Virus record (IMG/VR): IMGVR_UViG_3300034170_000071
Location: 1-61,244 of that record
Reading direction: 5' to 3' (one strand)
Length of the DNA: 61,244 bases
From: a virus
Taxonomy: Duplodnaviria; Caudoviricetes
The position numbers were made by a program, and so were the translations under genes. A model generated the notes under the pieces. It did not search any database and was not told where the DNA came from. It was given only the letters and a program-made list of their open reading frames with translations. This document shows positions 29,208 through 43,842 of the stretch, in pieces. Each line of letters starts with the position of its first letter. Positions within the stretch are counted from its first letter, which is position 1.

Positions 29208-29633
29208 ATGAAAATGATGCTCGCACTGGCGGCCAGCGCTAAGAAGTATTTGCCGGGCGGCCTGATGATTCGACTGGCCCGGAACTATCCGGATTTGCGG
29301 GACTTGGGCAACCGATTACTGCGCCTGCCAATTATCCCACGCGGCAATTTCGTTCCGAAGCTGCCAAAGTTTGATAACGATTTGATTGTGTACGCACAGC
29401 AGAATAAATTCGCGCTGTACTACGGTTATCGGATCTACAAAACCGAAGACAACAAAGACCAACTGGAACCGCTGCTGATGTGCGTAGACGATAAGGGCCG
29501 CGTAGTTGAGCCCGAAAAGAATCGTCTGGATAGCACGTTTTATTATGTGGGTATTCGCATTCCCGCAGACGATATCCAAAGCCGTCGCTACGCCAATAAA
29601 TTTAACCGAATGGATTATCTGAAGGACCACTGA
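29208..29633 (+). CDS. hypothetical protein with N-terminal tag MKMMLALAA
   Basis: 141-aa ORF carrying the shared N-terminal motif. Confidence 0.8.
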   Translation: MKMMLALAASAKKYLPGGLMIRLARNYPDLRDLGNRLLRLPIIPRGNFVPKLPKFDNDLIVYAQQNKFALYYGYRIYKTEDNKDQLEPLLMCVDDKGRVVEPEKNRLDSTFYYVGIRIPADDIQSRRYANKFNRMDYLKDH

Positions 29634-31702
29634 TGGAAATGTCGATTGCTGTGAGTGTGTCCGATGATCCGCGCAAGTGGGAACTAAAAAATAAACACCG
29701 AGCTAATCGTCGCAATAAGCCTACTCACACCGTCAAGCATGGGGCCTACGTTCTGGAATGGTTCGACGGCAAGGGCGCGGATGATTTAGCAGGCCAGATT
29801 TTCGCGATTGATTCCGCGTCGGATGAGGTTGTGGGCGATGCGATGGGATTCATCGACGGTACGAAGTTGGTAGGCACCATCGAAGTGCGTAAAGACTTCC
29901 GTCGTAAAGGTCTAGCGACCCTGATGTATGACCAAATCGAAAAAGAAAGCGGTATGCGTTTTCGACCCGATGACTCTCACACAAAAGACGCTGCCGCATT
30001 CTGGAAAAATCGTATGAAAATTGATATTGCTACGGCTGCGTCAATCGCGCCACCGGGTGCAGCGGATGCTTTCATTAAGCTGCTGATTGCGATCTACAAG
30101 GCGAACGAATTCGACTACGGCACGAATTTCCAAGTCAAACTGAAGAAATGGAACGAAGAGGCTCAACCGTTCCTAGACCAGTACGCAATCAAGCGCACCT
30201 TTACCAAAACGCTGACAATGCTGGTCAACGGTGACGATGTATCGGATGAGAAATATTCGATTATTGTTGCAGGCTGCTTTGATTCCCTCAAGAAGAAAAA
30301 GAAAGCATTCGACAAAGACAAAGGATTATCCAAGTTGCAATTGGGTTTCCTGAATGACGTGCGTCTGGCCTACAAAGGATCGGAAGGCGCGGGCAAGCGC
30401 ATTATGCAGAACGTGGGATACTTCAAAGACTCCCATATCAGCAAGATGTTTTTACATGAAGAATCACAAGTGAATACTTCGGCACAAACTACGCTGTACG
30501 ATCGGTTAGAGCAGCACGTGAAAACCCACGGCAAAGTCAGTGGTCACGTAATGCCGAATACCACGCTTGAGAAATGGCGTGATAAGGCTAAGGAAGTCGG
30601 CGGTAATCTGACCGAACACCAAGACTATTTGGACATGCGCCGCCAGCGTAAAGCCATGGCAGACAAAGCGATTGCAAACATCGTCCGGGCCTCTGGTGAA
30701 CACATTGTGGACGTGGATGTAATCCGCGAACAAATGAACGGAATCCAGCACGATATTCCTGATTGGTTTGTCGGTAAGATCGACGACAAAGGGAATTACT
30801 TCACGACTGACGGATTGCAGCTGCTGAATAAACCGATTGGCGAAGGCCACATGAACCCGAATTACAAAGCGGGATCGACGGTTTATTATTGCCAGTACAA
30901 GGCGCCCTTTGCCGCCAACATGTCGAACGTGTACACGATTGCAGCGCGTACCGAAGGCCGTGTGCAGTCTTTCAACGTCGTGCAAAACATGCTGCCGGAC
31001 GTAACGAAGTATGTGAAAAAATGGCTGCCTGATTTGGCTAAGGGACCGGGCTCGTTGCGTGGCGTTGCTGCTGCTGTTTGTGAAACGATTTATCAGACAA
31101 GTGCGCGTATTGGTTCGACCCGTGGTAATACCGCTGGCGTCACCACCTACGGCATTTCTACACTGCTGCGCAAGCATGCCCTGTTTAACGATCAGCGCGT
31201 AATTTTTAAGTACGACGGGAAGAAAGGCGGTGCCCAAAAGCACGTGATCAAATTCGATGAACAGCGGACACAAATGCTACACGCTGCACTCGATGAATTC
31301 CTGTTTGAAAAGAAACCTACGGAATACATTTTCACTTTCCGTGGCAAACCGCTGTCGAACTCACAAGTGAACGGTTATCTACGCGACCTCGGATTTCCTG
31401 AAGGTTTCAGCATCCACAAATTCCGGAAACTTCGCGGTACAGCAATGGCGAAAGTGCTAATGGATAAATGTCCGTTTGGTGCCCGCGCCCGTGATGCAGA
31501 CGTTAACAAATGGATCGAGAAACAGTGCCTGACTATCGGTAAGGAACTCGGCCACATGGCAGGTACGGAAGTGACGGCCACTACGGCAATCGCGAACTAT
31601 ATCGACCCGTCTGTTTTCCTGCCGGTTTATGAGAAAACGAATACGCGCCCAAACTCCAAAATCCAAAAGGCGATTGACCTCGCCACGAAGAGTGCAGAAT
31701 AA
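29633..31702 (+). CDS. GNAT domain fused to type IB DNA topoisomerase
   Basis: GNAT IEVRKDFRRKGLATLMY; topo IB SARIG, TYGISTL..KH, F.YDGKKG, VNGYL, HKFRKLRGT, LGH, NYIDP. Confidence 0.88.
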   Translation: MEMSIAVSVSDDPRKWELKNKHRANRRNKPTHTVKHGAYVLEWFDGKGADDLAGQIFAIDSASDEVVGDAMGFIDGTKLVGTIEVRKDFRRKGLATLMYDQIEKESGMRFRPDDSHTKDAAAFWKNRMKIDIATAASIAPPGAADAFIKLLIAIYKANEFDYGTNFQVKLKKWNEEAQPFLDQYAIKRTFTKTLTMLVNGDDVSDEKYSIIVAGCFDSLKKKKKAFDKDKGLSKLQLGFLNDVRLAYKGSEGAGKRIMQNVGYFKDSHISKMFLHEESQVNTSAQTTLYDRLEQHVKTHGKVSGHVMPNTTLEKWRDKAKEVGGNLTEHQDYLDMRRQRKAMADKAIANIVRASGEHIVDVDVIREQMNGIQHDIPDWFVGKIDDKGNYFTTDGLQLLNKPIGEGHMNPNYKAGSTVYYCQYKAPFAANMSNVYTIAARTEGRVQSFNVVQNMLPDVTKYVKKWLPDLAKGPGSLRGVAAAVCETIYQTSARIGSTRGNTAGVTTYGISTLLRKHALFNDQRVIFKYDGKKGGAQKHVIKFDEQRTQMLHAALDEFLFEKKPTEYIFTFRGKPLSNSQVNGYLRDLGFPEGFSIHKFRKLRGTAMAKVLMDKCPFGARARDADVNKWIEKQCLTIGKELGHMAGTEVTATTAIANYIDPSVFLPVYEKTNTRPNSKIQKAIDLATKSAE

Positions 31703-32080
31703 ATGGAAATGCTACTGACCGTAACACCTACCAATACCAAGCTCGACAAAAGCAATTTGATTCCGACCGGGATGAAAATCCAAGCCTTTTCGATCCACGA
31801 TCAGTACACGGATAAATACCTCGGCGCCGGTTCGCATTCCCCGTGCAGTGCTGCTGTTGCGCTGAAGAAAATCAAAGAATATACGTCGAAACTCGGCGCG
31901 GTGAACGTGATGTTTGACCTGCTGGATAATGACGGTCGTGTGATTCGTTCGAAACGTTCTTACCGCATAAGAGGCGGTGATTTGGTCCAACCGTATCCGG
32001 GTGCCGATAGCATCCTGAAAGATATCATGACGCCCACACCGAAGCCGACCAATCAGGCGAAAGCAATCCGGAACATTTAA
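31703..32080 (+). CDS. hypothetical protein (variant tag MEMLLTVT)
   Basis: Abuts the previous stop (TAAATG). Confidence 0.75.
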   Translation: MEMLLTVTPTNTKLDKSNLIPTGMKIQAFSIHDQYTDKYLGAGSHSPCSAAVALKKIKEYTSKLGAVNVMFDLLDNDGRVIRSKRSYRIRGGDLVQPYPGADSILKDIMTPTPKPTNQAKAIRNI

Positions 32081-43195: not shown

Positions 43196-43621
43196 ATGGA
43201 ACTTTTCATTGCGTTGGCCGCAGAGGATGTGGGCGCACGGATTTCTGATGGTGTGCGTACCATCCTGAAAAAGTCGTACAGTTCGTTGTTCGCAAACGTG
43301 TTTGTGCGTGTGTACGATATTGAGGACCGCAGTAAATCGGATATCACAATCGTAAAGGAAATGGAAAAGGAATATGCGCCGGTAATGGTGGCGGTCGAGA
43401 ATGCTATTCACGATAATGTGGTATTCATTTTCGCTGTACCAGTTCGGGCGCCTATGCTGCACATGACCAATTCCCCACTGGCATACGCAATTCACGGCAA
43501 CAAAATCGACAGTTTCAAACTTGAGTCGCGTGTTGTACAGGTGCGCGGTGCTGATTACGCAATCGCTGCCACTATTGCGCGCCGGACGCCAAACTTTATT
43601 GATATCGGAATCTCCAAATAA
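43196..43621 (+). CDS. hypothetical protein with tag MELFIALAA
   Basis: Abuts the previous stop (TAAATG). Confidence 0.8.
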   Translation: MELFIALAAEDVGARISDGVRTILKKSYSSLFANVFVRVYDIEDRSKSDITIVKEMEKEYAPVMVAVENAIHDNVVFIFAVPVRAPMLHMTNSPLAYAIHGNKIDSFKLESRVVQVRGADYAIAATIARRTPNFIDIGISK

Positions 43622-43842
43622 TGGAAATACTGATCGCTTTGGCGCGTGCCGGGTCAGCTGAACGATGGGACGCCTTGCCTAGTGTACGTTTCGACCGTGC
43701 AAAGAAGGGGCGCCCGTTGGATGCTGACGGAACGATTAAAAAGAAACGCCGTAGAAAACTGAAAAGTGGACTGATCGACACGCCGTTAAAAGGCGCAGAG
43801 AAACGGCAAATGGATATTCAGGACACGGTTAGATGCCCGTGA
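43621..43842 (+). CDS. small basic protein with tag MEILIALAR
   Basis: TAATG-coupled; KKKRRRKLK. Confidence 0.75.
   Translation: MEILIALARAGSAERWDALPSVRFDRAKKGRPLDADGTIKKKRRRKLKSGLIDTPLKGAEKRQMDIQDTVRCP

Follow-up and report, generated by a model that had tools for sequence, protein, structure and literature searches.

In the 61,244-nucleotide stretch of virus DNA analysed here (IMG/VR record IMGVR_UViG_3300034170_000071, an entire assembly; hereafter the window), about a dozen neighbouring and largely dissimilar genes of one block (29208-43842) encode proteins that begin with the same eight-residue peptide, or tag. As judged from the sequences, the core of the tag is the same as a motif that recurs in related phages, where the scaffold, capsid protein, portal and protease contain it. 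Since the tag matches what is probably the motif of the head protease, its most likely role is to mark proteins for loading into the head and subsequent trimming. The explanation that we regard as probable is that the tag is an N-terminal “load-then-clip” signal, similar to the capsid targeting sequence (CTS) of bacteriophage T4, consisting of a copy of the site of a prohead protease with the gp21 fold and placed on a variable set of cargo proteins. Indeed, several computational lines support the core of the idea, put forward in an earlier note on this DNA, of a CTS-like signal that ends in a head-protease site and is carried by a mixed cargo.

In the mechanism that we infer for the binding of the tag, the position of its cleavage, packaging and injection, the tag, generalized as M-[EKQ]-h-x-h-[AS]-x-[AS] (h, hydrophobic; x, any residue), would be an N-terminal copy of the recognition site of the prohead protease. 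The tagged proteins would be made late, from a transcription unit beginning past the portal gene, and their tag, a flexible extension ahead of the folded body, would bring them into the assembling prohead core, the scaffold, protease and 120-aa (amino acid) core protein of which would all bear the tag motif. At maturation the protease would cut, probably directly after the second small residue, and this cut would both remove the tag and divide any fusion protein that has an internal tag. In its mature form the cargo, comprising a type IB topoisomerase, a GNAT-like domain, three large paralogues and several small proteins, would then remain in the head and probably exit with the DNA.

An eight-residue tag on neighbouring genes

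At the DNA level the window is matched by the Pseudomonas phages HRDY3 and Lu11 only (75–77% identity over the topoisomerase region); Lu11 gp181–gp231 have the same gene order as the 61,244 bases and the proteins of HRDY3 are ~52–80% identical to those encoded here. On this sequence evidence the window represents part of the genome of a jumbo phage similar to Lu11 and HRDY3. The ten ATG starts of open reading frames (ORFs) on which the earlier note had based the common pattern (29208, 29633, 33260, 33637, 34139, 34877, 35789, 37696, 43196 and 43621) have exactly the N-termini quoted there, and the two variants, at 31703 and 40526, were likewise confirmed to be ATG ORF starts. The pattern common to these starts is M-[EK]-h-x-h-A-x-[AGS], eight residues long. 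The block and its immediate border comprise:

29208..29633, + strand: tagged gene, 141 aa, MKMMLALAA; the Lu11 (gp196) and HRDY3 orthologues are tagged too
29633..31702, + strand: tagged 689-aa fusion, MEMSIAVSV; weak GNAT-like N-domain in frame with a type IB topoisomerase
30014..30040, + strand: internal tag copy MKIDIATAA, residues 128-136 of the 689-aa fusion
31703..32080, + strand: variant-tag gene, 125 aa, MEMLLTVT; without homologue in the Lu11 and HRDY3 blocks
32082..33249, + strand: two untagged genes within the block, 130 aa and 243 aa
33260..33637, + strand: tagged gene, 125 aa, MEVSIALGA; without homologue in the Lu11 and HRDY3 blocks
33637..33969, + strand: tagged gene, 110 aa, MEIMLALAA; phrog_6147 (unknown function), E 3.5e-24
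33966..34142, + strand: 58-aa gene within the block, untagged in the window, Lu11 and HRDY3
34139..34570, + strand: tagged gene, 143 aa, MKMELATAA; HRDY3 orthologue tagged
34573..34875, + strand: untagged gene within the block, basic, 100 aa
34877..35788, + strand: tagged gene, 303 aa, MKMFVALAK then FHGTS; family without a name
35789..37696, + strand: large paralogue 1, 635 aa, MEIQIALAA; paralogous to the next two over ~250 N-terminal residues
37696..40452, + strand: large paralogue 2, 918 aa, MKLELALAA; N-domain (~residues 12-265) possibly of GNAT-like fold
40526..43195, + strand: large paralogue 3, 889 aa, variant tag with a 3-residue insertion (MLIDLAFIGTAAVS)
43196..43621, + strand: tagged gene, 141 aa, MELFIALAA; Lu11 and HRDY3 orthologues tagged
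43621..43842, + strand: tagged gene, 73 aa, basic, MEILIALAR; orthologues tagged
44110..44862, + strand: 250-aa protein at the block end, without N-terminal tag; internal core IATA then SD at ~residue 152

A six-frame scan of the window at start codons with the regular expression (regex) [MVL][EKNRD][ILMV].[ILV][AT][LTVIAF][AGST] yielded 12 matches over the 61,244 bases. Every match is on the + strand and within 29208–43621; 11 are gene starts and one (30014) is internal. Elsewhere in the window neither strand has a match at a start codon. The statement of the earlier note that the replication, metabolic and baseplate genes of the window lack the tag holds for gene starts, but outside the block copies of its core are present inside the portal and inside two proteins of 430 and 80 aa. 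Because the regex was written after the tags had been seen, the fair control is provided by independent genomes. Applied to the whole Lu11 genome (280,538 bp), the same regex gave 19 matches, namely 13 gene starts in a single ~15-kb block (154182-169399), one in the head module and five junk matches in short or non-ATG ORFs. In the whole of HRDY3 a degenerate DNA pattern found 16 matches, as against 5 for the reversed-pattern control, and these are distributed between the orthologous block (10, one being an offset duplicate) and the head module (2), the remainder being junk (3) or ambiguous (1). In the window, Lu11 and HRDY3, N-terminal tags are restricted to one gene block and the head module. 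The scan of ORF starts with a position-specific matrix, which the earlier note had proposed, was less telling than the regex, the matches of which are confined to the block: with a matrix trained on the 13 Lu11 tags and run on the 76 greedy ORF starts of the window, the top seven scores all belong to block genes, yet just 3 reach at least 8 bits. This is a weak test, because the matrix is too lineage-specific and greedy gene calling left out 33260, 33637 and 34139.

The conservation of the tag is at the level of the peptide and not of the DNA, as had been claimed from the varying synonymous codons. Pairwise nucleotide identity among the tags is 0.48, 0.78 and 0.345 at codon positions 1, 2 and 3, respectively, and the same codon is used in 79 of the 216 same-residue pairs, compared with 73.7 expected from codon usage; the only fixed codon is codon 2, which is AAA or GAA. 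When the tags are stripped, BLASTP (E<1e-4) finds mutual matches only among the 635-, 918- and 889-aa proteins, so that the tagged proteins are indeed otherwise dissimilar, the three large paralogues excepted. Furthermore, whether a given gene is tagged or untagged is mostly conserved across the window, Lu11 and HRDY3. Counterparts of the tagged genes at 31703, 33260 and 33637 are absent from the blocks of Lu11 and HRDY3, and the cargo set therefore varies between relatives.

The tag occurs in lineage-specific dialects:

Lu11: nearly uniform M-K-I-Q-L-A-V-A; 13 block genes
HRDY3: M-E-[ML]-x-L-A-L-A; 12 of the 29 genes listed
Dickeya phage JA13: M-[QEK]-h-x-h-S-[LI]-S; 8 of the 28 genes listed
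Erwinia phage Yoloswag: M-E-I-x-[IV]-S-[LF]-S; 4 of the 29 genes listed

Thus, A-x-A tags are found in Pseudomonas phages and S-x-S tags in Dickeya and Erwinia phages, with Pseudomonas phage PaBG representing a mixed type (S-L-S-A at the start of its topoisomerase, A-V-A in its gp83). Unrelated genes of one genome share a dialect and their orthologues elsewhere use another, as is expected if all tags answer to a single co-evolving partner.

The tag core in head proteins and the head protease

The nature of this partner is suggested by the head module of the relatives. Lu11 has one tagged gene that is not part of the block, gp68, and this gene is situated between gp71, the head maturation protease (phrog_18299, E 1.2e-112), and gp65, the major head protein (phrog_2522, E 8.3e-119). 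Between the same two genes is gp67, an acidic protein of 634 aa that contains eight copies of the core [ILVMF]A[ILVT]A[AGST]; shuffled versions contain 0.25 copies on average and 3 at most, and none of 5000 reaches eight. From its sequence and location gp67 is probably the scaffold. The corresponding gene is annotated “ATPase” in Lu11 (L002 39347-41251), JA13 and HRDY3 (L013 4230-6205, two ORFs) and “60S ribosomal-like protein L2-A” in PaBG (L015 4293-6224), labels that look like misannotations. Over the whole Lu11 genome 39 core sites are present in 28 of 390 greedy ORFs, as against 14.4 expected; those that are not tags include the capsid protein site, one at residue 54 of the portal and others in gp73, gp68 and a small number of further proteins.

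In the scaffolds of four phages the dialect of the tag is mirrored by the frequency of the two short motifs (observed versus expected, with the outcome in 2000 shuffles in brackets):

Lu11 scaffold, A-x-A tag: A-x-A 31 versus 16.2 (0/2000); S-x-S 2 versus 3.5 (1739/2000)
HRDY3 scaffold, A-x-A tag: A-x-A 37 versus 16.8 (0/2000); S-x-S 4 versus 3.1 (722/2000)
PaBG scaffold, mixed tag: A-x-A 27 versus 12.9 (0/2000); S-x-S 7 versus 5.1 (498/2000)
JA13 scaffold, S-x-S tag: A-x-A 11 versus 6.1 (79/2000); S-x-S 28 versus 11.5 (0/2000)

The exchange can be followed in individual columns of the alignments. Where the scaffolds of the three Pseudomonas phages read A-L-A-T-A-A, that of JA13 has A-L-S-T-S-M; V-A-V-A-S is replaced by F-Q-S-E-S-S, and the capsid site V-A-T-A-S by V-S-E-S-H. 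To judge from these alignments, tags, scaffold repeats, capsid site and protease N-terminus switch between Ala and Ser together, by lineage.

The single core copy of the Lu11 capsid protein starts at residue 68 of 364, ~20% into the chain, and PaBG has a matching site at ~residues 69-78 of 368; for the PaBG capsid protein a loss of ~20% in mass during maturation is described (section 3.2 of PMC7412058). In the portal of the window the core reads LATA, followed by G, at ~residue 47, and in both the window and Lu11 the portal site falls exactly at the border between a variable N-terminus and the conserved core of the protein. The proteins of the window with internal core sites, other than those of the block, are:

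9621..10913, + strand: 430-aa protein, single core site at residue 352 (FAVA, next residue S); site kept in Lu11 gp176
20944..22899, + strand: portal protein; phrog_16240, E 1.5e-258
57994..58236, + strand: 80-aa zinc-ribbon protein of the baseplate module with two conserved core sites

The PHROGs label “DNA ligase” of the 80-aa zinc-ribbon family looks wrong, given the size of the protein.

The protease itself bears the motif. Its homologues have [AS]-x-[ASG] immediately before a conserved F-S-x-G, and some metagenomic ones open with the full tag, M-K-K-E-L-A-L-A or M-K-K-E-L-S-L-S. The Lu11 protease found no match in Pfam or Protein Data Bank (PDB) sequence searches, and its identification came from the fold search alone. 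A model of the metagenomic relative P0122, with a predicted local distance difference test (pLDDT) score of 78.6, superimposes on T4 gp21 (5jbl_A) in the VIA search with Z 10.2 and an rmsd of 3.1 over 148 of 165 residues aligned, the next match having Z 5.9, and the three best Foldseek matches of the model are gp21 chains (E 4.7e-3). The herpesvirus proteases score between Z 3.7 and 4.8 (4.8 for human cytomegalovirus, 4.6 for varicella-zoster virus), and a His and a Ser are invariant in the protease alignment. According to the model, therefore, the head protease of these relatives has the fold of T4 gp21 (assemblin) and would be a serine protease.

The likeness to T4 is considerable. In that phage the CTS is carried by the internal proteins IPI–III, Alt, gp67 and gp68 and is removed by the prohead protease gp21, at sites ending in Glu such as ITE-6 and LTE-619 of Alt (as described in PMC5694885 and PMC10052503). 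The comparison was made with this description. Both signals are short N-terminal peptides that are common to unrelated proteins and end in a head-protease site, here a putative one; in both systems the site is repeated in the scaffold or core and in the capsid propeptide (here at the level of the motif), the protease is of gp21 fold and the cargo set varies between relatives. Unlike the CTS, the present tag has eight residues, and its motif, either A-x-A or S-x-S with S, A or T as the next residue, has no conserved terminal Glu; its cargo would include a type IB topoisomerase, 600-900-aa paralogues and fusions with internal tags. The claim that the signal is a different one is therefore borne out as far as the motif is concerned, which is small-x-small and not Glu-ending, but not with respect to the protease, the fold of which is that of T4.

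In phiKZ and SPN3US, the S80 protease (gp175 and gp245, respectively) cuts the capsid protein, the portal, itself and packaged proteins (PMC10052503, PMC5694885), and the motif is given as A-X-E with propeptides mostly of 111–254 residues and just two of 20–24 (PMC10052503). Like these, the phages considered here are jumbo phages with a gp21-related protease and a three-residue motif having Ala at P3; unlike in these, the apparent P1 is Ala or Ser instead of Glu and the cargo propeptide has eight residues. The gp21 fold is shared also by the herpesvirus proteases (PMC5694885). As to the apparent specificity, an Ala at P1 followed by Ser or Ala would resemble that of the assemblins, the cleavage position here being the predicted one. 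Assemblins cut Ala–Ser bonds; they belong to eukaryotic viruses and are not known to have an N-terminal cargo tag.

A literature search found no publication describing the tag, within the available text of, among others, the PaBG paper, the jumbo-phage survey of Iyer et al. and a 2026 jumbo-phage review. If the load-then-clip reading is true, a clade of Pseudomonas, Erwinia and Dickeya jumbo phages, together with many uncultured relatives, would load changeable enzymes into the head by means of an eight-residue address, a simple sequence rule would predict virion-internal, probably injected proteins, and a cleavage specificity could be predicted for the head protease. The tag would also be a candidate for packaging chosen proteins in phage heads, as has been done with the T4 CTS, and a type IB topoisomerase riding in the capsid would bear on the handling of DNA at entry.

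A bolder version can be put forward tentatively, as a possibility that we would not favor at present. In this version, the eight residues alone would be a sufficient, portable loading signal that mimics a substrate, so that in the prohead core any protein with the site at a free N-terminus would be captured by either the scaffold or the zymogen protease; new cargo would be recruited by gaining a tag or, in a polyprotein-like manner, by fusing to existing cargo through an internal cleavable tag. The block would then represent a fast-evolving cassette of injected enzymes, among them the type IB topoisomerase and acyltransferase-like proteins, the protease would have a herpesvirus-like small P1 and the tag would be the shortest known for phage packaging.

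Candidate cargo proteins, virion data and alternative explanations

The topoisomerase is, on sequence grounds, the sole securely named cargo protein. The earlier note had counted topoisomerase and GNAT as distinct cargo items, a view that has to be corrected, since they are really one fused 689-aa ORF with an internal second tag. The fusion matches Pfam Topoisom_I (E 6.4e-12), the GNAT matches are under the curated cut-off and phrog_23460 spans residues 128-687. The internal tag (MKIDIATAAS) aligns with the N-terminus of Lu11 gp197 (MNVHIAVAA), a topoisomerase alone of 561 aa, and HRDY3 has separate genes for a 135-aa protein (start MELEITIAS) and a 562-aa topoisomerase, each with a tag or near-tag. 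The internal tag of the fusion represents the former start of the topoisomerase, and it is predicted to be an internal cleavage or linker site. In the metagenomic protein P0169 a module like that at 34139 is fused to a domain of the 303-aa (34877) family via an internal K-A-V-A, and P0167 has an N-terminal extension containing L-A-V-A-S. In the 250-aa protein an A-x-A-S-D site precedes a conserved basic C-domain and is kept in the window, HRDY3 and Lu11, the Lu11 orthologue (gp213) having in addition a full N-terminal tag, MKIMLAVA. The internal tags of the three fusions and the site of the 250-aa protein would fit a cleavable linker.

The 141-aa protein at 29208 has no Pfam or PHROG match. 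The family of the 303-aa protein, in which the strict tag is present in 9 of 15 homologues, keeps FHGTS, LSQVAGKEAE, FFLSVRR and EQEDRYY in its alignment, the H-G-T motif coming directly after the tag. No match was found for the 15 members in Pfam at E<=1 or in a PDB profile search; the proposal that the protein resembles ADP-ribosyltransferases (ART) found no backing in these searches, and the Atlas leads in that direction are weak (0.83–0.87).

The AlphaFold2 model of the N-domain of the 918-aa protein (pLDDT 80.2) has a first helix that begins at residue 12, and residues 1–8, i.e., the tag, are the only N-terminal stretch below pLDDT 50. In the VIA fold search all 50 matches listed are GNAT-type acyltransferases (best Z 7.0, rmsd 3.2, 100 residues aligned), Foldseek found nothing in the PDB at E<=0.001 (best E 0.16) and the N-domain of the large paralogues has no Pfam match; a GNAT fold is thus possible, the signal from the model being consistent yet middling. 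The family is large and without a name: a threshold of E<=0.001 gives 2,561 representatives and one of E<=1e-30 gives 1,250. Within it tagged and untagged N-terminal classes coexist: the strict tag is present in 64 of 116 homologues and in 34 of 109 newly returned representatives. The variant tag of paralogue 3, with its 3-residue insertion, recurs in metagenomic homologues, and the homologues of phages Atu_ph07 and RsoM2USA, which are without tag, begin at a conserved A-L-x-P-S-x-Y-R region. Untagged members of the family, among P0174-P0282, start with M-K-L-x-D-L-L-x-E-A-L-K-P-S, a sequence loosely similar to the tagged M-K-I-x-V-S-L-S-A-x-x-L-S, and it may be that the tag derives from the N-terminus of this family and subsequently spread. 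The UniRef label “Portal protein” for the HRDY3 large paralogue looks like a misannotation.

The untagged homologues in RsoM2USA and Atu_ph07 are also those for which virion data, from mass spectrometry, exist. ORF132 of RsoM2USA is one of 10 bands identified from purified virions, at 76.64 kDa (PMC8504454), and its computed mass is 76.62 kDa. In Atu_ph07 the homologue has a computed mass of 55.10 kDa and its upstream neighbour of 11.30 kDa; Table S5 contains gp394 (55,10 kDa, 18 unique peptides, 41.01% coverage) and gp393 (11,30 kDa), with which the two proteins are equated by a match of mass only. As to the topoisomerase, the start of the PaBG protein, M-H-T-S-L-S-A, resembles a tag, and its gene is part of the head module and adjoins gp83, which carries a tag-like site and is a virion protein in Table 1 of PMC7412058.

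Two further features of the window bear on the time and the agent of processing:

22921..22928, + strand: promoter core CTGTAAAT, just past the portal stop; the only + copy from the portal to the block end
26678..28003, + strand: KMPT-N + SprT-like zinc peptidase of 441 aa, a short way upstream of the block; Pfam KMPT-N, E 1.8e-11

This core is the consensus of 19 sites annotated in Lu11 as putative middle/late promoters. In the window it occurs in six copies as against 1.29 expected, a number reached in 0 of 100 shuffles; the + copies are at 4026 (3′ end of a gene), 4825 and 22921 (between ORFs) and 10588 (inside an ORF), and the − copies at 33808 and 51165. The copy past the portal stop is weak evidence, from sequence, that the block is expressed late. 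In the 441-aa protein the SprT-like match (E 2.7e-5, 24.4 bits) is slightly below the curated cut-off of 25.6 bits; this peptidase is a rival candidate for the processing enzyme.

Several observations weigh against the load-then-clip reading. For the tagged proteins themselves, both the presence in virions and the sites of cleavage are predictions; the PaBG virion proteome gives just 14 abundant proteins (PMC7412058), and no virion proteome is found in the available text of the Dickeya phage paper (PMC6143709). Since the family members proven to be in virions are untagged, the tag is not needed for virion entry of that family, the identification in Atu_ph07 resting, as said, on mass. The window has no head module of its own, so that the evidence on protease, scaffold and capsid comes from relatives, and the argument from a late promoter depends on sites that the Lu11 annotators call putative. 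Finally, the tagged genes of the Dickeya and Erwinia phages lie amid replication and recombination genes and not head genes, and a second type of peptidase (KMPT-N/SprT-like) is encoded beside the block and in the JA13 head module.

Some of these points would be accommodated if the motif were a site of trimming or release only, in proteins that owe their arrival in the head to their own folded domains or to other partners. The untagged virion proteins of RsoM2USA and, by mass, Atu_ph07 speak for this explanation, as does the internal position of the core in scaffold, capsid protein and portal, where it is first of all a protease site. We nevertheless deem it unlikely: trimming eight disordered residues has no evident purpose by itself, the tag is strictly at residue 1 of separate genes and is kept there across orthologues, and nine mutually unrelated proteins, some of just 73–143 aa, have the tag alone in common. 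Still less probable is processing outside the head, by the zinc peptidase or by a free gp21-like enzyme, to yield intracellular replication or takeover factors. A topoisomerase among the cargo, the KMPT-N + SprT-like gene directly upstream of the block, the KMPT-N/HExxH gene in the JA13 head module and the vicinity of the JA13 and Yoloswag tagged genes to those for DNA polymerase III, an SbcC-like exonuclease and SSB would be in keeping with it; however, the motif is richest in the scaffold and marks capsid, portal and protease N-terminus with a concerted Ala/Ser variation that ties it to the head protease, and the PaBG topoisomerase gene is inside the head module.

The same neighbourhood, the alternation of hydrophobic and small residues and the start M-Q-h-x-h-S-L of several JA13 tags could also suggest a short linear motif that docks as a β-strand on a hub outside the head such as the sliding clamp and thereby recruits DNA-acting proteins, the clamp-binding motif being a Q-L-x-L-x-L-like peptide with a conserved Gln. 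We consider this very improbable. Position 2 is Q in some tags of the Dickeya phage only and E or K elsewhere, and the eight copies in the scaffold and the sites in capsid, portal and protease would be left unexplained; the clamp reading was dropped after the motif had been found in scaffold, capsid protein and protease. A PDB sequence search with the candidate clamp (368-aa protein, 12311-13417) gave no match. A signal in the nucleic acid, either an element for translation initiation or coupling or a recombination site at cassette borders, has in its favor that most tagged genes start at or over the preceding stop codon with poor Shine–Dalgarno sequences and that codon 2 is invariably AAA or GAA, but is largely refuted, and in our opinion hardly credible, in light of the low third-position identity (0.345 versus 0.78 at the second), the near-expected sharing of synonymous codons (79 versus 73.7) and the presence of the same peptide motif inside head proteins. 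A Sec signal peptide, which has a positive n-region and a hydrophobic core of ~10–15 residues before A-x-A, was rejected because just five residues precede A-x-A here and the motif is found also inside the cytoplasmic scaffold and capsid proteins.

Gene layout of the window and further observations

The first part of the window encodes, on the + strand, a sigma factor, a Tad3-like gene, a UvsX-like recombinase and a DnaB-like helicase and is followed by the terminase and portal genes:

16025-18925, + strand: large terminase

Between the portal and the tagged block, the + strand contains a gp5-like hub, a tail-fibre gene with an S74 chaperone domain, the KMPT-N + SprT-like peptidase, an MmcB-like gene and a thymidylate kinase. 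The block (29208-43842) is followed by a short metabolic unit on the minus strand and then by baseplate genes.

KMPT-N proteins recur beside head genes: a protein with KMPT-N and KTSC domains is encoded between terminase and portal (19021-20316, + strand), and the head module of JA13 includes a KMPT-N protein with an HExxH motif (L014 3086-4132). A second topoisomerase-like gene (11349-12311, + strand; phrog_17701, E 2.6e-65), untagged and located in the replication module, is distinct from the tagged type IB enzyme. The Tad3-like gene (4247-4822, + strand) encodes a 191-aa protein matching Pfam Tad3 (Type I Thoeris inhibitor) with E 4.6e-31 and is likely an anti-defence gene. Lastly, in the thymidylate synthase of 467 aa (49714-51117, − strand) the 266-position Pfam model is stretched across residues 69–465, and the protein therefore has an N-terminal extension and a large insertion.

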